A stretch of DNA of 64,000 nt from Candidatus Oxydemutatoraceae bacterium (lineage in GTDB: Bacteria > Pseudomonadota > Gammaproteobacteria > Poriferisulfidales > Oxydemutatoraceae). Below are positions 1,694 to 56,497 of the stretch, one piece after another. The stretch's first letter is position 1. Each line of letters opens with the position of its first letter. The notes beneath the pieces are model-generated. The model made no database searches and was not told the origin of the DNA. It was given only the letters and a program-made list of their open reading frames with translations. Both the position numbers and the translations under genes were made by a program. The stretch covers positions 1,100,769-1,164,768 of the forward strand of contig OZ244779.1 of NCBI GenBank assembly GCA_965219575.1, in the 5' to 3' direction.

Positions 1694-4234
1694 ATGCCCG
1701 ATTTTGCCAAAGAAATTCTTCCGGTTAGTTTAGAAGCCGAGATGCGTAAATCCTATTTGGATTACGCAATGAGTGTGATTATAGGCCGTGCTTTGCCCGA
1801 TATTTGCGACGGTTTGAAACCGGTACATAGACGCGTACTCTATGCGATGCACGAACTTCATAACGATTGGAACAAAGCGTATAAGAAATCGGCACGCATC
1901 GTCGGTGATGTGATAGGTAAGTATCACCCGCACGGCGATAATGCGGTATACGATACCATAGTACGGATGGCACAAACCTTCTCTTTGCGCTATCCGTTGA
2001 TAGACGGACAAGGTAATTTCGGTTCTATAGACGGTGATGCTCCTGCGGCGATGCGCTATACCGAGGTCCGGCTTGCGAAAATAGCACACGAACTGCTTGC
2101 CGACATAGATAAGGAAACGGTCGATTTCATTCCCAATTACGATAATTCCGAGAAAGAACCCGTAGTCTTGCCTTCGCGGGTGCCGAATTTGCTGGTCAAC
2201 GGTTCTGCAGGCATTGCAGTCGGTATGGCGACGAATATCCCGACCCATAATTTGGGTGAGGTAATCGATGCCGTTTTGGCACTTGCGAAGAACCCGGATA
2301 TATCGATAGACGATTTGATTCGCTACATTCCGGGACCGGATTTTCCGACCGCCGCCATTATCAACGGGCGCGAGGGGTTGCACGAAGCCTATCGTAGTGG
2401 GCGTGGACGCGCAGTGATGCGTGCCAAGTGCAAAATAGAACCCATAAAAAAAGGAGAGCACGAGCGTATTATCATCGAAGAACTGCCGTATGCGGTCAAT
2501 AAAGCACAGTTGCTCGAGAAAATTGCCGATTTGGTCAAAGAAAAACGAATTGAGGGTATTTCCGAATTACGCGACGAGACCGACAAGGAAGGCATGCGCG
2601 TCGTTATAGAATTAAAGCGTAGAGAGAACAGCGAAATCATACTCAATAATCTGTACAAACATACCAAGATGCAATCGACATTCAGCATCAACATGGTTGC
2701 GCTACAGCAAGGTCAGCCGAAGCTATTTAACCTCAAGGAAATTCTAGAGGCCTTTCTGCGGCATCGCCGTGATGTTGTCACCAAACGCACCGTGTTTGAA
2801 TTACGCAAAGCCAAGGACAAAGCACATCTTTTGGAAGGGTTGGCGGTTGCGCTTGCCAATATAGACGAAGTGATTGCGCTGATAAAAAGTTCGCAGACAT
2901 CGGCCGATGCCAAACGTGCGCTCAGCGGGCGGGCGTGGAAACCGGGGGCGGTTATGCAGCTCATGGAGAAAGCCGATGCGGTGATATCCAAACCGGACAC
3001 TCTGCCTGCCGAATTCGGCTTACACGAAGACGGTTATCATTTATCCGAACAGCAAGCGCAAGCGATACTAGACCTGAAACTTCATCGCTTGACCGCATTG
3101 GAGCAGGACAAAATAGTCTCCGATTACGAGGAGCTTATTGCATTGATATTGGATCTACTCGAAATACTCTCCAACCCCGATCGTTTGATGAAGGTGATTT
3201 GCGACGAGTTAAAGAATATCAAGAAGCACTACGGCGACGAGCGCAAGACCAAGATAGTAGACCAATCGGTTGACATAGACGAGGAAGATCTGATTACCGA
3301 AGAGGATATGATGTTGACGATATCGCACGCCGGCTATGCCAAAATACAACCGCCCGATCATTATCGCGCCCAGCGCAGAGGCGGCAGAGGAAAGACGGCA
3401 ACCGCCGTCAAAGAAGAAGATTTCATAGAAATGATGTTCGTTGCGAGTACGCACGACACCCTATTATGTTTTTCCAACCTAGGACAACTCTATTGGATCA
3501 AGGTTTATAAATTACCCCGAGCCGGACGCACCGCCAGAGGCAAACCCTTGGTCAATCTGCTCAAACTCGGTGAGGACGAGCGTATCACTACGATACTACC
3601 GATAAAGTCTTATGCAGAAGGTTTGTATATTACGATGGCAACCGAGAGAGGAATCGTCAAACGCACGCCGTTGACGGCATTTTCCAGACCGCGCAGCAAC
3701 GGTATCAGGGCGATCAATCTGAAAGCAGGCGACAAAATGATAGGTGCGGTGTTAACCGACGGTGCGAGAGAAATCATGCTGTTCAGCGATGTGGGGCGTG
3801 CGGTTCGCTTTAAGGAATCCGACATACGCTCGATGGGTAGAATAGCCCGTGGTGTCATAGGAATGCGACTGCCCGAGGGTGCGAAGATTATTTCTTTGAT
3901 TTGTTTATCGGAAAGAGATGAGGGAAAAGTTAAAATTTTGGTCGCAACCGAAAACGGCTACGGCAAGCGAACCTATGCAAAAGAGTTTTCTACCAAGCGG
4001 CGCGGTTGTATGGGAACGATTTCTATAAAAACCAGCGAGCGCAACGGCAAAGTAATAGGTGCGCTACCCTTTGCCGATGTCGACGAAATCATGTTGATTA
4101 CCGATAAAGGCGTGCTGGTTCGCACCCGAGTGTCTACCATCTCTACCGTAAGCCGTAATACGCAAGGTGTCAGGCTGATACGGCTCGACAACAATGCAAA
4201 GCTATCGGAAATAGTGCGCATAGATAAGGAATGA
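1694..4234 (+). CDS. gyrA: DNA gyrase subunit A
   Basis: [24 protein letters not shown], GyrA box QRRGGRG. Confidence 0.98.
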
Positions 4235-4261
4235 TCGTCGCTTAGCGCAAAGCTCGAACTT

Positions 4262-4591
4262 GGGATTGTTGAAAAATACCGTTTTGCATGAATAATGTGT
4301 TTACCGACCAAATTTATGCTTACCCACCGTAGGGGCAGACTAGCATGTCTGCCCTTAAGTATCGTTTTGCACAACACCAACCGCTCTGCGCCGACAAATA
4401 ATGGTTTCCATAAATTAATGGGTAAACGCGTTAATTGTGCAAACATGATGCGTTTCGGGCGGACATCATTAAATTGCCGATTGACCTACCGGCTCAATCG
4501 GCGGCTTTATACTGCCCCTACAGGTGGTCTGGGTAATTATATGGCGCAAGCGGTTAGATTTGTGCGATGCCAGTACTTTTTCAACAGTCGA
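4262..4591. repeat. Mosaic repeat cluster bounded by degenerate B TIRs
   Basis: GGGATTGTTGAAAAA...TTTTTCAACAG enclosing a REP-A and a D-filled REP-A (4457-4521). Confidence 0.85.
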
Positions 4592-4613
4592 GCCCAAGCA
4601 ACACGCAATCTAT

Positions 4614-5693
4614 ATGCCGCTTTATAATTTTTCCCCCGGCCCTGCGGTTTTACCTCAAGTCGTAGTGGAAAAATCCCGACAACTCGTTTGCGAAAGGCAT
4701 CCGGTGCCACTCCTAGAGATAGGGCATAGAACCGCTTATATCGACGAGGTCGTTCAAAGCATGCGCGATAGGCTACGCAGGCTATTGGATATCCCCGATG
4801 ACTACGAGGTATTATTTTCGTCGAGCGGCACCCGTGCCCAATACGCGGCGGTGGCGATGAACCTCGCCCACGATAAGCGTGTCGATTATTTCAATACCGG
4901 TTATTGGTCGGAGTACGCCGTTGCCGAAGCTAAAAAGTATATTCCCGATAACAAGCTCAAAATCGTCGCTTCAGTCTCCGAACAGCCACCGTTGTCCTTA
5001 GCCGCCCCCGAAGCGTGGCAGCTCGGCGAAGCGGCGGCGTATCGTCATTATGTTTCAAACGAAACGCTTACCGGGTTTGAATTTTTTGCCGAAGCGCATA
5101 TAGACGACGGTAGCTTGGTAGCCGATATGACATCCAATTTTCTAACCCGCACGATCGACATACGCTCGCATCGGATGATATACGCCGGCGCACAAAAGAA
5201 TGCCGGTGTCGGCGGCTTGGTTTATATCGTCATCGCACGCGAAGCCTTATCGGCACTGCCTCATCCCTCAACTCCGGCGTTATACGACTATAATAAATTG
5301 TATGAAACAAACTCCAGACCGACTACACCGCCGGTTTTTTCGTGGTTGGTTGCGAATCTGATGTTGGAATGGATAGAGGCGCAAGGCGGTGTGGTGGAAA
5401 TGCAAAAGCGATGCCGGCAACGCTCGGCTTTGATATACGATTGCATAGACGGCTCTTCAGTTTATACAAATCCTATTGCTAAGCGATATCGTTCTCGGGT
5501 CAATGTATTATTCAATTTGCCGACGAGTGCGCTCGAGCAGCAATTTATAGGTCAAGCGGAGCAACACGGTTTGTGGGGGTTGAAAGGGCATAGCCATACC
5601 GGCGGTATACGCGCAAGCCTGTATAATGGAATGCCGATTTCGGGAGCCCGAACCTTAGTGGAATTTATGAGAGATTTTGAACGCAAAATTTAA
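4614..5693 (+). CDS. serC: Phosphoserine aminotransferase
   Basis: YNFSPGPAVLP, YAGAQKN (PLP Lys), LKGH..GGIRASLYN; ATG 4614 preferred because the longer ORF starts inside repeats. Confidence 0.95.
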   Translation: MPLYNFSPGPAVLPQVVVEKSRQLVCERHPVPLLEIGHRTAYIDEVVQSMRDRLRRLLDIPDDYEVLFSSSGTRAQYAAVAMNLAHDKRVDYFNTGYWSEYAVAEAKKYIPDNKLKIVASVSEQPPLSLAAPEAWQLGEAAAYRHYVSNETLTGFEFFAEAHIDDGSLVADMTSNFLTRTIDIRSHRMIYAGAQKNAGVGGLVYIVIAREALSALPHPSTPALYDYNKLYETNSRPTTPPVFSWLVANLMLEWIEAQGGVVEMQKRCRQRSALIYDCIDGSSVYTNPIAKRYRSRVNVLFNLPTSALEQQFIGQAEQHGLWGLKGHSHTGGIRASLYNGMPISGARTLVEFMRDFERKI

Positions 5694-21800: not shown

Positions 21801-22961
21801 ATGATATCGAGAATCTTAAAACCTGGCTCAAAAGATAGCTTTTTTCTATTTGGCGCAAGGGGCGTAGGAAAATCCTTTCTCCTTGAACATAAATTCAAGA
21901 AAAGCGCATGCTTATGGATAGATTTTTTAGACTTTGAAGAAGAGCAAGCCTTTCGCCGGAATCCCAATGAACTATCTTATAGATTGTCCAAAGGTAGCTA
22001 TCGCAGGGTTGTTATCGATGAAATTCAAAAAGTGCCTAAACTTTTGGATATCGTTCAAAAGGAGATGGGAAAGAATCCTAAAATCCAATTCATCATGACC
22101 GGTTCCAGTGCAAGAAAACTTAAAAGAGATCAAAGCAACCTGCTTGCCGGAAGAGCATTTACCTATCATCTTTATCCGTTAACCACCTTTGAATTAAAAA
22201 ACAACTTTGACCTCACCGAAGTACTAAACTTCGGTAGCTTGCCGGGATTGCTGGAGAAAAAATCAAAGGCTCGGAAAAGCGAGTTTTTAAGAAGTTATGT
22301 GCATACCTATATGAAAGAGGAGATAAGAGTAGAGCAACTGATAAGAAACTTCGATCCTTTTCAAACATTTCTTGAGGTCGCCGCACAACAAAACGGAAAA
22401 ATTATCAATTACTCTAATATCGCCGACGATGTGCAGGTGAACCATAAAACGGTGGCGAGCTACTTCACAATTCTCGAGGATACATTATTAGGTTTTATGT
22501 TGCCGTCGTACCATAAATCCATCAGAAAACAACAGCGTAAATCTCCTAAATTCTATTTCTTCGATACCGGGCTAAAGAAAGCTCTGGATAGAACCTTAAA
22601 CTTTGATCTTAGCGAAGGGACCTATGCTTTCGGAGCAGCCTTCGAGCATTGGGTTATCGCCGAGTGTTTTCGTCTCAACGCATACTTGAGAAAAGATTTT
22701 AAGTTTTCGTATCTTAGAACCAAGGACGGAGTGGAGATAGATCTGATTATAGAAAGACCCATGCAAAAAGATCTTCTGGTCGAGATAAAGTCTTCCGGAC
22801 AAATCAAAGACAAACATACGACGCATCTTTGTGCCTTTCAAAAAGACTGGAAGCCCGGCGGTATAAGCCAGATTTGGTCGTTGGATAAAAACGAAAAAAA
22901 TATCAAAGGGGTGGATTGTTTATTTTGGAAAAATGCGCTTAAAAGAATATTCATAGAGTAG
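21801..22961 (+). CDS. AAA_14 ATPase with DUF4143 / PD-(D/E)XK C-terminal domain
   Basis: GARGVGKS, VVIDEIQ, TGSS, LAGRA, PKFYFFDTGL, EIDLII..VEIK. Confidence 0.9.
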   Translation: MISRILKPGSKDSFFLFGARGVGKSFLLEHKFKKSACLWIDFLDFEEEQAFRRNPNELSYRLSKGSYRRVVIDEIQKVPKLLDIVQKEMGKNPKIQFIMTGSSARKLKRDQSNLLAGRAFTYHLYPLTTFELKNNFDLTEVLNFGSLPGLLEKKSKARKSEFLRSYVHTYMKEEIRVEQLIRNFDPFQTFLEVAAQQNGKIINYSNIADDVQVNHKTVASYFTILEDTLLGFMLPSYHKSIRKQQRKSPKFYFFDTGLKKALDRTLNFDLSEGTYAFGAAFEHWVIAECFRLNAYLRKDFKFSYLRTKDGVEIDLIIERPMQKDLLVEIKSSGQIKDKHTTHLCAFQKDWKPGGISQIWSLDKNEKNIKGVDCLFWKNALKRIFIE

Positions 22962-23132
22962 AATTTGCGAACCACCTATAGAGATGCGCCATTCCCTTCG
23001 TTGTAGGGGTGGCCTATGCATTTTGCAATGCATGCGTTTAGCAGTCATGTTGAGGTTCTGAACAAAGTCACGCCGATTGACCTACTGGTTCAATCGGCGT
23101 TTCTATTCAGCCTGATGGGGTGGTTGCAGCGT

Positions 23133-24229
23133 GGGGCTGTTGAAAAAGTATCGCCAGCGTGCAACCGTAACCGTTTGCGCCATGAATTTATACAAACCGC
23201 CGTAGGGGCGGACTGGCATGTCCGCCCTAAAGTGTCGTTCTGCACAGCCGTAATCGCTTGCGCCGTATGGTTTTGGTTTCCATAAATTAACTGGTGTACG
23301 ATTTTATTTGTGCAAACGCAGTGCGTTTCGAGAAGGTATGTTATCTCCCTACGGTTCATAAAATACTTTTTCAACGGCTCCGTCGTATCTGCACAAGCAC
23401 GGTGTCTGCCCATTCCCTTACTGTGGCGGGTGCAATAGCCCCACGTTCTTGGCATTAGTTCACAAAAAGCACGACCACACTGAGAATAGAACATACCGAA
23501 ACAAAAATGCCGATAGCGAGCCCAACACCCCATTTATAAATGTTATCTCTCAATTTAGATTGTTCTCTTAAGATGTCATCTCTCAATTTAGATTGTTCTC
23601 TTAAGATGTCATCTCGCAATTTAGATTGTTCTCTTGCAATGGTCGCAATGTCCTTTTTCATTTCTACAATATCGGTTTTTATATTCAAGATGTCGGTTTT
23701 CATAACCGCCATCTCAACTTCAACATTGTTTAGTCTCAGTTCTATATTTTTTATATCGGCTTTCATATCTACGATGTCGGCTTCAATATTGTTTAGTCTC
23801 AGTTTCATGCTTTCTATATCGGCTTTCATGTCTGCCATCTCGGCTTTCATGTCTACGATATCGGCTTCAACATTGCTTAGTCTTAGATCTATACTTTCCA
23901 TATATAAACCTGCCTTGTCCGATTGTGGGGGATGTGTTTCCGATTCTAGAAAGTCTAGCGTTGACTTCATTTCGAGCACCATTTTGTAAATAGTTTCAAT
24001 CGTTAAGTTATCTACATTTTCTATATTTTCCATTTTTAACCTCTTTAAGTTGAATTATAAGAAAGAGCCTGCGTTATAGCAAGCCGTCTAATCGCAATCG
24101 GATTATAAATTCGGCTAGAGGGTGCTGTTTCGCGTTTCCGACGAACGGTATCAAAAATATGGATGAACTTGCAGAAGCCATTGATTGAGGTCATAGGTTA
24201 ATCGGCCGATACCATCTTTCAACGGCTCC
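23133..24229. mobile_element. Composite B-TIR-bounded unit carrying a coiled-coil gene; 5-bp TSD AGCGT
   Basis: AGCGT(23128-23132)-GGGGCTGTTGAAA...TTTCAACGGCTCC-AGCGT(24230-24234). Confidence 0.6.
23455..24033 (-). CDS. Heptad/hendecad-repeat coiled-coil protein with C-terminal TM anchor (Bdr/DUF1640-like architecture), copy 1
   Basis: MKADIxx/LRLNN heptads, LRDDILREQSK repeats, hydrophobic tail; AGAGG SD. Confidence 0.8.
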   Translation of the reverse strand: MENIENVDNLTIETIYKMVLEMKSTLDFLESETHPPQSDKAGLYMESIDLRLSNVEADIVDMKAEMADMKADIESMKLRLNNIEADIVDMKADIKNIELRLNNVEVEMAVMKTDILNIKTDIVEMKKDIATIAREQSKLRDDILREQSKLRDDILREQSKLRDNIYKWGVGLAIGIFVSVCSILSVVVLFVN

Positions 24230-24322
24230 AGCGTATCTGCACCATTCCAATCGCTACCCACCAATATGGCAAGTGATGCGACTTTCTGCTACGATAGCCG
24301 TTTATACCGAACAGGAGAAGCA

Positions 24323-25664
24323 ATGAAAGATGTTATAGATAAGGAATTATTCGGATGGATCCCACTCTACGAAGGAATAGCCGACCCTTTTAGAGGTCGT
24401 CGGAGAAGAGCCATCGGCGGAACCAAAGCCGAAGAAAGATGAGTAGCTATCTTTTTGAGGGGAAGTTTATTACGAAGCTACGCGCTTCTAATCCTAGACG
24501 TACACCGGACGAAAGCCGGACCGACAAGGCGACTATTCGTAACAAATCTAACGGCTATTACAGCTGGAAGTTACTTTCGGACGGCGATTCCTACGAGGAA
24601 TATATAAAGAAGGGCGGTCGTCCTAAAGATCTACGCTGTGACTACGACCGCGATCGTATCGCCTTAAGCGATACGAGAGAAGAAGCCTTAGCTAAAGCTC
24701 TTCCGCAGGCGGAAGCCGAAGATGTAGCCGAAGAGGAAACCGAATATAAGCCTGATGATCTGCCCGATTCGGATGAACTCTATGGGGTTGACGACATCGT
24801 TAAAAACGGTTGCTTTATGACTCGTGCAGAATTGGAGAACATTCTCGGACCGCTACGAAGCAAAAAAACATCGTTCTACAAGGTCCTCCCGGCACCGGAA
24901 AAACATGGCTAGCCAAACGGTTGGCGTATGCTTTGATGGGGGTCAAAGATAGCGATAAATTAAAAGCCGTACAATTCCATTCAAACATATCTTACGAAGA
25001 TTTTGTTATCGGATACCGCCCGTCGGGGGACGGAAAGTTGGAACTGAAGCACGGTCCATTTCTAGAGATGATAGACAAAGCCGAAAATGACGACAACAAT
25101 AACTATGTTGTCGTGATAGAAGAGATCAACAGGGGGAATCCCGCTCGGGTATTCGGAGAAATGTTAACCCTTCTGGAAGCCGATAAAAGAGAAGCGGGGG
25201 AAGCATTGCAACTGAGTTACGGCAAGGAAAAGGTGTTCGTACCACCCAATCTTTTCGTTATCGGCACCATGAACATTGCCGATCGCTCGTTGGCATTGGT
25301 TGATTTTGCTCTGCGTCGCAGGTTTGCTTTTATAGATCTGAAGCCTAATTTTGGAGATAAGTGGAAAAACTGGGTTCATGCGGAAATCGATATCCCCGAA
25401 GAATTTTTGGAAAAAATAGGACAGCGGATGAGAGAACTAAACGATACAATCGCAAATGCCTCCGGCTTGGGTGAACAATTTAAGATAGGGCATAGCTATT
25501 TGATACCGACCGGCAATACGATAGAAGCGGACTATAAAGGGAGTCATACGGCGTGGTATAGAGAGGTGATAAAAACCGAGATAGAACCGTTGCTTAGAGA
25601 ATATTGGTTTGATACACCGGAGACTGCCAAGAAGGAGGCGGAAAAACTTAGCGAAGGGATTTAG
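24323..25664 (+). pseudogene. mcrB: McrB-like AAA+ GTPase, fragmented
   Basis: N-terminal FGWIPLYE fragment with SD; frameshift at the A7 run 24862-24868 before NIVLQGPPGTGKT; EEINRG, GTMNIADRS, ALRRRF. Confidence 0.8.
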
Positions 25665-26770
25665 TGGCAGTGTCGGCAACTGAGGCTATACTCATTGTAG
25701 GCAAGATTCCTATTCGCAATTTATAGCTACTGATATTCTACGCTTCCGACCTTCATCACCACGACGAGACGGCTAGAAAAAACCTCGAAGAGAATCCCGA
25801 CGACATTGCCGATATCGCGGCGGATATACTTTGCCATCATGTAGAGCGGCGGCTGAGGCGCAATCTGAGTTTTGGTTATCAAAATAAAGTTGCCGTTCTG
25901 AACAGAGTGCGAGGACGTATAGACCTGCTCTATACCGAGTCTCGTCAACTATTGAGCAAAGCCGAGGTCTGTTGCCGTTTTGCCGAACTGACCATTGATA
26001 CACCGCGCAATCGCTATGTGCATGCGGCATTGCAATATCTAGCCTCACTAAAACAGCTTGATAAAGAGCGAAAACACCAATGCCGTTTGCTCGCTATGCA
26101 ACTTGAAGCCATAGGTGTGGGACGGCAAAAACCACCCAACTATGGTGCGAGGAGCGAGCGTTTCGGCTTACACGACTACGCAGACAGAGCCATGCTATAC
26201 GCTGCCGACTTGGCATTTAGCTTAGCCTTGCCGACCGACATAGACGGCGACCATTACCTGCTATCTTCCGATAAAGATATCAGCTGGTTGCGAAAGTTAT
26301 TTGAGCGCGCAGTGCGCGGTTTCTATGCGATTAGACTTAAAGATATATGCGAGGTGAAATCGGAAAATTTGAAATGGGATAGGCAACAAGAAACCGATCA
26401 AATTAAAGACATCTTGCCGGAAATGCAAACCGACATAAGCATTAAAAATAAATCATCCGGCGAGTGTTTAATCATTGATACCAAGTTTAACGAAATAACC
26501 ACCAAAGGGTGGCATAGGGACAGGGCACTGCGCAACAGTTATATCTACCAAATATACGCTTATGTAAGAAGCCAAGAGCGATACGAAGATCCGTCATCGC
26601 GTTCAACGGCAGGGATGTTGTTGCATCCCTCGGTTGGCGAAGATTACAACGAATCGGTTACTATTCAAGGACACGAGTTCAAGTTCTGCACCGTCGATCT
26701 CGCAGCCGAGGCAAAGCAGATAACTGCCCGATTATTGGATCTGCTACCCGCACATTTTAGGGAAGTGTGA
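25664..26770 (+). pseudogene. mcrC: McrC-like nuclease with a premature TAG
   Basis: GTG overlaps the mcrB stop; KIPIRNL*LLIFYASD (TAG 25724-25726), continuing in frame to RGRID..., MQTDI, IIDTKF, YQIYAY. Confidence 0.82.
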
Positions 26771-55685: not shown

Positions 55686-55750
55686 AATTCCCCTCCTTGT
55701 AGGGGCGGACTTGCATGTCCGCCCTTAGGGTGGCAGGCGCAATAGCCCCA
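55686..55750. repeat. C unit with REP-A inserted into its hairpin
   Basis: TTCCCCTCCTT-[REP-A 55699-55724]-TTAGGGTGGCAGGCGC. Confidence 0.75.
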
Positions 55751-55761
55751 CGCGCTTGGTA

Positions 55762-56370
55762 TTAGTTCACCAAAAGCACGACTACACTGAGAATAGAACA
55801 TACCGAAACAAAAATGCCGATAGCGAGCCCAACACCCCATTTATAAATGTCATCTCTCAGTTTAGATTGTTCTCTTAAGATGTCATTTCTCAATTTAGAT
55901 TGTTCTCTTGCAATGGTCGCAATGTCCTTTTTCATTTCTACAATATCAGCTTTTATATTCAAGATGTCGGTTTTCATAACCGCCATCTCAACTTCAATAT
56001 TGTTTAGTCTCAGCTGTATACTTTTTATATCGGCTTTCATGTCTGCCATCTCGGCTTTTATGTCTACGATATCGGCTTCAACATTGTTTAGTCTCAGCTG
56101 TATACTTTTTATATCGGCTTTCATGTCTGCCATCTCGGCTTTCATGTCTACGATGTCGGCTTCAATATTGTTTAGTCTCAGTTTCATGCTTTCTATATCG
56201 GTATCAACATTGCTTAATCTTAGGTCTATACTTTCCATGTATAAACCTGCTTTGTCCGACTGTGGAGCATGTGTTTCCGATTCTAGAAAGTCCAGCTTTG
56301 ACTTCATTTCGAGTACCATTTCATAAATGGTCTTAATTGTTAAGTTATCTACATTTTCTATATTTTCCAT
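55762..56370 (-). CDS. Heptad-repeat coiled-coil protein with C-terminal TM anchor, copy 2
   Basis: Paralog of 23455-24033 with near-identical N- and C-termini and upstream DNA. Confidence 0.82.
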   Translation of the reverse strand: MENIENVDNLTIKTIYEMVLEMKSKLDFLESETHAPQSDKAGLYMESIDLRLSNVDTDIESMKLRLNNIEADIVDMKAEMADMKADIKSIQLRLNNVEADIVDIKAEMADMKADIKSIQLRLNNIEVEMAVMKTDILNIKADIVEMKKDIATIAREQSKLRNDILREQSKLRDDIYKWGVGLAIGIFVSVCSILSVVVLLVN

Positions 56371-56497
56371 TTTTAACCTCTTTAAGTTGAATTATAAGAA
56401 AGAGCCTGCGTTATAGCAAGCCGTCTAATCGTAATCGGATTATAAATTCGGCTATAGGATGCTTTTTCGCGTTTCCGACGAACGGTATCAAAAAAGC

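Follow-up and report, generated by a model that had tools for sequence, protein, structure and literature searches.

Can the ends of a miniature transposon carry off a complete bacterial gene? The question is raised by a 1.1-kb block at 23133-24229 of the window (the 64,000-nt stretch of DNA analysed here), in which TIR-type ends bracket a gene and AGCGT stands on either side. An earlier note had read the block as a transposase-free gene cassette moved in trans by MITE ends. We compared the block with the rest of its genome, with related genomes and with environmental samples, and we weigh below the histories that could have produced it.

Anatomy of an AGCGT-flanked block

Read directly from the sequence, the window runs in the order GGGGTGGTTGC, AGCGT, 23133..24229, AGCGT, ATCTGCAC. 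In full, GGGGTGGTTGC AGCGT is followed by a MITE (GGGGCTGTTGAAAAAGTAT ... ATACTTTTTCAACGGCTCC), GTCGT ATCTGCAC, the gene, and GATACCATC TTTCAACGGCTCC AGCGT ATCTGCAC CATTCC, so that every element of the AGCGT-flanked, TIR-ended block described earlier is in place (Table 1). Three parts make up the unit: a complete 249-bp MITE, here called B; an inner linker and half-site (GTCGT-ATCTGCAC); and 848 bp that hold a gene for a 192-aa coiled-coil and transmembrane protein and close with a second MITE-type terminus. The left end, starting GGGGCTGTTGAAA at 23133, agrees with the consensus at 17/17 positions, the outer right end (TTTCAACGGCTCC, 24217-24229) at 12/17. The inner right end, also TTTCAACGGCTCC, lies at 23369-23381 and is followed by GTCGT-ATCTGCAC; as the earlier note had held, it is not paired with AGCGT, and the MITE taken alone has AGCGT and GTCGT as its flanks (3/5 matching). 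With the left end, the inner right end forms an inverted repeat of 19 nt (89%) and the outer right end one of 14 nt (86%). A 26-nt direct repeat, TTTCAACGGCTCC-NN-CGTATCTGCAC, found at 23369 and 24217 with 24/26 positions identical, brackets the 848 bp.

Table 1. Features of the block, its flanks and the second gene copy in the window
Feature	Positions	Strand	Basis or remark
Left context: palindromic hairpin D module (23070-23100) and C-site left half GGGGTGGTTGC (23118-23128)	23070..23127	+	Block at 96% identity adjoins the empty site in G003
Left target-duplication copy, AGCGT	23128..23132	.	Single copy in the G003 empty allele
Complete 249-bp MITE 'B' with IS1182-type ends; TIRs 23133-23151 and 23363-23381	23133..23381	+	
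Inner linker GTCGT (consensus) and C-site right half ATCTGCAC; together with the inner right end, repeats 24217-24242 directly over 26 nt	23382..23394	+	
Degenerate C-type repeat and 3′ flank of the gene; paralog homology begins at ~23415-23432	23395..23454	+	
Passenger gene, 192 aa	23455..24033	-	ORF list, profile scans
Region upstream of the gene; conserved across the genome's 5 paralogs	24034..24182	-	
Hairpin D copy (24183-24206) and 10-nt spacer	24183..24216	.	'TIR + spacer + hairpin D' layout
Outer right terminus TTTCAACGGCTCC; 12/17 conserved TIR positions, both rare substitutions of the inner right end	24217..24229	-	
Right target-duplication copy, AGCGT	24230..24234	.	
C-site right half (ATCTGCAC CATTCC...)	24235..24262	+	Runs on from the left half in G003
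Cargo paralog, 82% identity over 806 aligned positions; no adjoining B ends	55722..56494	+	

No full second MITE flanks the gene at the right, where just a 13-nt tip stands (at most about 47 nt with hairpin D included). Nor was a transposase found in the unit: its longest ORF, of 192 aa, was scanned with Pfam and NCBIfam, and the rest are shorter, overlapping ORFs. The cargo is thus what had been claimed for it, a complete coiled-coil gene with its upstream region in a transposase-free block.

The B family, its target site and the empty allele

B ends crowd this genome, a single 2.37-Mb contig of 47% G+C (G000). The 13-mer end occurs, with at most 2 mismatches, 16 times in the window, where 1.74 are expected, and 545 times in the genome; the 17-nt end, with at most 3 mismatches, is found 260 times per strand in 2.37 Mb. 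Positions 1-17 are conserved at 77-99% across the 545 ends, which are symmetric, 'left' and 'right' carrying no information on internal orientation. About 180/520 ends are unpaired, and 170 simple pairs span 130-460 bp. The elements are small, non-coding and present in many copies, fall into size classes of ~209, 253 and 297 bp, and carry a GTAG-type hairpin. An exact duplication flanks 62 of the 170 simple pairs (28 of 4 bp, 29 of 5 bp, 4 of 6 bp and 1 of 7 bp), a further 14 have 2-3 bp, and 94 have none. The earlier note had counted three other B elements with 5-bp duplications; this stood for two of the seven in the window, the others having 4 bp (one) or none (four).

A cognate element was found in sister genomes. 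Matches to PF13751 number 9 in G001 and 12 in G004, with 2 fragments in G003 and none in G000. The IS of these genomes measures ~1,815 bp, encodes transposase ORFs of 537-619 aa, has the ends GGGACTGTTGAAAAAGTAG / AATACTTTTTCAACAGTCCC, shares the TIR GGGACTGTTGAAAAAGT with the MITE family, and is flanked by duplications of 4-5 bp (ACAT, ATGT, AATAT). Its 582-aa transposase (locus L021) scores 379 bits on NF033551, the IS1182 family (cut-off 270), and also matches DUF772 and DDE_Tnp_1_6. The autonomous IS that the earlier note had proposed to look for therefore exists. G000 itself keeps only a 32-aa transposase relic with two stops, so that the element is now a fossil there and any mobilisation lies in the past; between long B-end pairs in G000 we found IS110-family, Y1_Tnp (RAYT-like), PDDEXK_2, IS3 and IS1595 genes and no DDE enzyme with B ends. 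By its TIRs, short target duplication, small size, copy number and matching IS, B is a MITE derived from an IS1182-family IS. It is not a REPIN/RAYT-mobilised element, which makes no target duplication and has hairpin ends cut by Y1, whereas B has both the duplication and TIRs.

About half of the simple B pairs, in both orientations, lie in a repeat termed the C site, of the form GGGGTGGT[TC]G[CT]-5 nt-[AG]TCTGCAC. C half-sites adjoin 83 right ends and 67 left ends, and in 37 empty copies the linker between the halves is 5 nt long. The consensus linker is GTCGT (16/37 empty sites; 38/83 after right ends). AGCGT, which the earlier note had feared might simply be frequent, is rare: it occupies 1/37 empty C sites, 4/83 positions after right ends and 3/67 before left ends, the study locus included. 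Because AGCGT is a minority linker, a chance match of the two flanks would be expected in ~4% of cases.

We searched 40 relatives, and the flanks were matched in 3 of the 4 other genomes of the genus. The same-genus genome G003 reads GGGGTGGTTGC-AGCGT-ATCTGCACCATTCC, with a single AGCGT (in context, ...TTCTATTCAGCCTGACGGGGTGGTTGC AGCGT ATCTGCACCATTCCAATCGCTACCCACC...); there, the counterpart of window 22991-23132 (96% identity) joins directly to that of 24229 onward (88%). The single AGCGT means that 1,102 bp (1,097 + 5) were inserted with a 5-bp duplication, and these 1,102 bp are an insertion bordered by two transposon tips. The same right-flank pattern, an empty site, was found at locus L011, from the record of an uncultured Candidatus Porisulfidus MAG. 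The expectation that removing the unit restores a C-linker site, and that related genomes might hold an empty allele, was thus borne out precisely. The left neighbour is a DUF4143/AAA_14 ATPase gene (21801-22961), and to the right, at 24439-26770, stand an AAA_5 ATPase gene (McrB-like; a 284-aa ORF from an internal start) and its 287-aa neighbour. In G001 and G004 the flanking genes lie 16-19 bp apart, with none of the repeats in between, and the cargo is missing at the study site in G001, G003 and G004, where it is not syntenic.

Contigs from 4 public runs (4 samples, 2 studies) were compared with the window over 22700-24700. In all 4 samples the inner junction (23346-23496) showed 0 differences and the outer junction (24150 onward) 0-1, and the insertion is fixed in these four samples. 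The joints 23132>24230 and 23381>24230 were not seen in their contigs, which drop rare variants, so that minority alleles are possible.

These comparisons bear on two histories in which no transposase acted on the block as a whole at this site. One is chance juxtaposition, with an ordinary MITE and an unrelated solo end lying in two C sites that share a minority linker around a resident gene. AGCGT does make up 3-5% of linkers, solo ends are common, and such matches demonstrably occur: a B element stands on either side of the genes def and fmt (G000:C1:553731-555907), the outer flank of each being TAAGG, yet the two genes are syntenic in G001, G003 and G004, so equal outer linkers also arise without mobility. 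At the study site, however, G003 has one continuous C site, one AGCGT and no gene, and the gene is also missing here in G001 and G004. The G003 allele excludes chance juxtaposition for practical purposes.

The other history would have the block, together with both AGCGT copies, brought in from a lost donor by ectopic homologous recombination or gene conversion, anchored on the ~140-nt left repeat block and the right C half-site. The left flank, 22991-23132, is indeed a multi-copy repeat with 92-96% matches at several loci, and mosaic repeats and recombinant junctions are common in the genome. The homology on the right, however, amounts to only 8-11 nt, and such copying does not predict borders that fall exactly on two transposon tips with a 5-bp duplication; it also just shifts the question of origin to the donor. 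We consider this route improbable.

Two right ends: one step or two

Judged from sequence, we regard it as an even call that the block was mobilised in trans as one unit, either as a mobile insertion cassette or as a truncated composite. Under this reading, 23133-24229 would be a non-autonomous, gene-carrying derivative of an IS1182-family element, composed of the 249-bp MITE, the flank of a former site (GTCGT and half a C site), the gene with its upstream region and the second MITE-type terminus. An IS1182-family transposase acting in trans would have cut the linker of a REP-like C site (GGGGTGGTTGC-AGCGT-ATCTGCAC) with a 5-bp stagger and attached the MITE's left tip and the distal right tip to the cuts, a step that would have duplicated AGCGT. 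Such a derivative could be called a mobile insertion cassette; alternatively, it could have begun as a composite of two MITE copies, the right one being trimmed afterwards. We infer the use of both outer tips in a single event, with an IS1182-type transposase as the enzyme.

Movement as one unit is favoured by the empty allele of G003 and the lack of synteny of the cargo, because the B family targets exactly such C linkers, because a cognate IS with the same ends exists in sister genomes, and because the outer-end type closes a duplication-flanked element in G003 (below). It is weakened by an outer end with only 12/17 conserved positions, by the def-fmt pair, with its equal outer linkers in the absence of mobility, and by the lack of a donor and of a second copy: none was found in G000 or the 4 other genomes of the genus, and two metagenome scans, one for the right-flank pattern and one for the cargo/outer-end junction, had 0 matches each. 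Of the earlier claim that a cassette moved in trans, the borders, the duplication, the empty allele, the cognate IS and the G003 parallel therefore stand, and the second copy or donor that would complete it does not.

The two right ends carry a further trace of their history. An A at position 3 is found in 20/545 ends and a C at position 6 in 8/545; both occur together in 2/545, which are the inner and outer right ends of the unit, and in only one further copy in the four other genomes of the genus. As the double variant is unique in the genome, these two ends are copies of each other, a relation that the model of the earlier note did not predict. The MITE itself is chimeric. Its first ~95 nt resemble the B beside the paralog designated C, and the remainder matches, at 91% identity, the B at window coordinates -315407..-315158, its nearest relative, which has a consensus end. 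The shared variant could be explained by sister MITE copies followed by deletion, by gene conversion, or by duplication when the gene entered. Movement as one unit consequently needs an extra step, either sister copies with a deletion or gene conversion.

The outer end also has a characteristic setting. It lies 10 nt from hairpin D, and the same layout, an end followed at 9-10 nt by hairpin D, is seen at 12 further ends in the genome; that, among these 13 'TIR + hairpin D' ends, only the outer end has a partner that shares its duplication counts against movement as one unit. In G003, locus L044 (165-1396) holds a 1,232-bp element whose two ends differ, one being of the 'TIR + hairpin D' type and the other canonical; it lies in a C site, has CGAAGT on either side and carries a 387-aa ORF where PDDEXK_2 homology sits. 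Related copies occur at at least 5 places in G003, two of them in tandem. By its layout, the outer end of the unit thus appears to resemble a working end type and to be more than a 13-nt scrap.

A two-step history, which we hold possible but somewhat doubtful, would let the MITE alone enter the AGCGT linker and later gain the 848 bp before its last 13 nt, so that no transposase ever carried the gene. The gain could have come about by recombination with a paralog locus that has a B just 3′ of the gene, or by integration of a small circle at TTTCAACGGCTCC-NN-CGTATCTGCAC. The 26-nt direct repeat that brackets the 848 bp fits this course, and a shared, unique right-end variant is expected if the end was copied or if heteroduplex repair equalised both. 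The mosaic make-up of the MITE, which draws on two other copies, fits as well; the layout of paralogs C and E offers homology for the left junction; and recombination at a REP hairpin has demonstrably brought foreign repeat modules into another B element whose outer duplication, CGCGT, is intact. The course also takes one event fewer than assembly elsewhere followed by transposition. Against this, the homology at the right junction is merely 13-26 nt, the donor would itself have needed a right-end remnant beside hairpin D, and the spacing of end, 10 nt and hairpin D would copy a recurrent natural end type by coincidence. An allele with the 249-bp MITE alone, the expected intermediate, was not seen in the 4 samples and 4 relatives. 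Because a two-step history fits the empty-allele comparison equally, G003 does not settle movement in one piece.

We also considered whether long end pairs as a class bespeak composite transposition. Among pairs of 400-5000 bp, 12 have identical flanking 5-mers where 1.7 are expected, and 8 have identical non-consensus 5-mers where 0.44 are expected, a number that 0/300 shuffles reached. We count the excess in favour of movement of the study block as one unit, but rejected it as proof of composite transposition, since the cases inspected include the syntenic def-fmt pair and the recombination-enlarged B.

Several other end-bounded structures were recorded in the genome. At G000:C1:433049-435009 (locus L033, 1550-3510), TGCGT flanks a 1,961-bp unit in which a 206-aa gene is accompanied by a PDDEXK_2 element with B ends and by a small B. 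G001, G003 and G004 all lack 2.3 kb that include this unit; its 206-aa gene is a second copy, 93% identical, of a syntenic gene at G000:C1:1742332-1742871. For cargo transposition this unit is a better parallel than def-fmt. IS110-family genes (326-336 aa) lie between B ends at G000:C1:1384790-1386402, 1429086-1430664, 2071180-2072673, 1306628-1308280 and 1375451-1377112, and PF01548 and PF02371 were found on the copy scanned, 1306628-1308280. Three IS110-family copies are inserted inside the GTAG-type hairpin of a B element, GTAGGGGCGGACT.GCATG, which marks this hairpin as an IS110-family landing site. Three RAYT-like genes stand between B-type ends and REP hairpins (G000:C1:66166-67266, 1094633-1095732 and 1742923-1743709). 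The second of them was scanned and matches Y1_Tnp at 25.2 bits (cut-off 23); the first forms a unit of 1,101 bp in a C site with ACGAC on both sides.

At G000:C1:2126232-2129737, two inverted B copies (206/209 identical) flank two IS3-family copies; the outer flanks are CAGAG/CAGAG, and the inner ones, CCTTG/CCTTG, are halves of one C site. This arrangement looks as if a circle had fused with the chromosome, and we could not derive it from a standard pathway. B elements also adjoin, at ACTT, the ends (ACTTGACTAGTTTAGGG) of a ~755-bp IS that is present at G000:C1:2074266-2075043 and 7 other places (8 copies, 95-100% identity); its 226-aa protein we take, from a motif, to be IS1595-like. At G000:C1:470165-471287, six B left halves form an array with a period of ~192 bp, each after ACGAC or ACGAT.

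The passenger gene family and known systems

The passenger is the longest ORF in the block and the sole one there with paralogs. The N-terminus of its protein is conserved, the coiled-coil repeats are variable, and a transmembrane segment anchors the C-terminus. No family name came from Pfam, NCBIfam, PHROGs or the protein Atlas, which yielded only generic coiled-coil matches below their cut-offs. The genome holds five paralogs, 76-82% identical to the copy in the unit. One of them lies in the window, where the earlier note had placed a second copy devoid of B ends, and it is so. Homology with the paralogs spans ~23415-24206, covering the gene, its upstream region and in most also hairpin D; in none does it extend into the MITE or the outer end. 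A B end stands directly 3′ of the gene in four of the five paralogs, a further B lies on the 5′ side in three, and in paralogs C and E a B right end is followed by a linker, ATCTG[CT]AC and the gene, as at the unit. The check proposed earlier, for B TIRs with locus-specific 5-bp duplications at the paralogs, found no such case: no duplication surrounds a larger unit at the five paralogs of the genome, and at 9 paralog loci in G001, G003 and G004 there are B ends nearby and no pair with a matching duplication. In G003 no paralog exceeds 86% identity or has the outer end.

Paralogs are numerous in relatives, where some form tandem arrays with B ends in between. In G004 (locus L020, G004:C2:1833000-1841000), positions 2331-5400 hold three tandem repeats of a coiled-coil paralog and a B end, with the identical flank actggttcagatgcgc. 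Tandem duplication that takes a B end along is thus another way in which the coiled-coil gene family grows.

A broader reading, which we think unlikely on balance, is that B ends repeatedly captured and scattered host genes in Candidatus Porisulfidus, in the manner of Pack-MULEs, until the transposase was lost here. Its examples would be the tail-anchored coiled-coil family, the 540-bp copy of the 206-aa gene in the TGCGT-flanked unit and the PDDEXK_2 genes. If true, a protein family that varies in its repeats and may be exposed at the surface would owe its expansion in a sponge symbiont to such capture, and the process, halted here by the loss of the transposase, would parallel in bacteria the transduplication of plant Pack-MULEs.

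The locus offers a clean, dated case, in an uncultured symbiont, of a complete gene bracketed by non-autonomous transposon ends. With the gene copies of other end-bounded units added, it suggests a role of the dense MITE load in shuffling and duplicating genes, beyond that of intergenic litter. To our knowledge, the IS1182 family has seen little mechanistic study, and the left, inner and outer ends described here form a substrate for testing how much of an IS1182 end transposition needs.

The unit is a real and familiar kind of passenger-carrying mobile element, and it can be set beside several known systems. Plant Pack-MULEs belong to a eukaryotic Mutator family, usually carry gene fragments and capture them by gap repair. 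The unit resembles Pack-MULEs and transduplication in being a non-autonomous TIR element with a captured copy of a host gene whose paralogs are dispersed; unlike them, it is bacterial and holds a complete gene. With REP/BIME sequences and their RAYTs (the REPtron) it shares a target of REP-like intergenic repeats, a GTAG-type hairpin in the MITE and the occurrence of Y1_Tnp between B-type ends, but it differs in its TIRs and its target duplication, features that HUH/Y1 enzymes do not produce.

ISEcp1, of the IS1380 family, encodes its own transposase, and its transposition units use a surrogate right end and have a 5-bp duplication. As in those units, a good end and a weak distal end would move the adjacent DNA, the inner right end is kept and the duplication is 5 bp; in contrast, our unit is without a transposase of its own, and its distal end agrees with the inner end at all 13 nt and is no chance look-alike. 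Composites of two MITEs include integron mobilization units and the MITE-flanked integrons of Enterobacter and Acinetobacter. There, too, two non-autonomous ends in proper orientation bracket a cargo and the duplication lies at the outer borders, whereas the second member of our unit is a terminus of at most 13-47 nt and its cargo belongs to a chromosomal paralog family, with no resistance cassette.

The remaining comparison is with mobile insertion cassettes, of which MIC231 of Bacillus cereus is one. MIC/MICE elements are an established class of transposase-less units with IS ends and passenger genes (PMC3129680, PMC5444012), and the qnrS2 MICE of the Aeromonas plasmid pAC3 holds a MITE inside (PMC5444012). 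As in such cassettes, inverted ends that may both be of IS type bracket a passenger gene with no transposase, a short duplication flanks the whole unit, and movement would depend on a transposase in trans (PMC5444012). Unlike them, our unit has as its left part a complete MITE with the inner end and the old flank still in place, its right end retains only 12/17 conserved positions, and it is known from one copy, belongs to the IS1182 family and shows a single empty site as the sign of its presumed mobility as a unit. What is notable in the unit, then, is its IS1182 family, its retained inner end, its precise empty site and its link to an expanding gene family.
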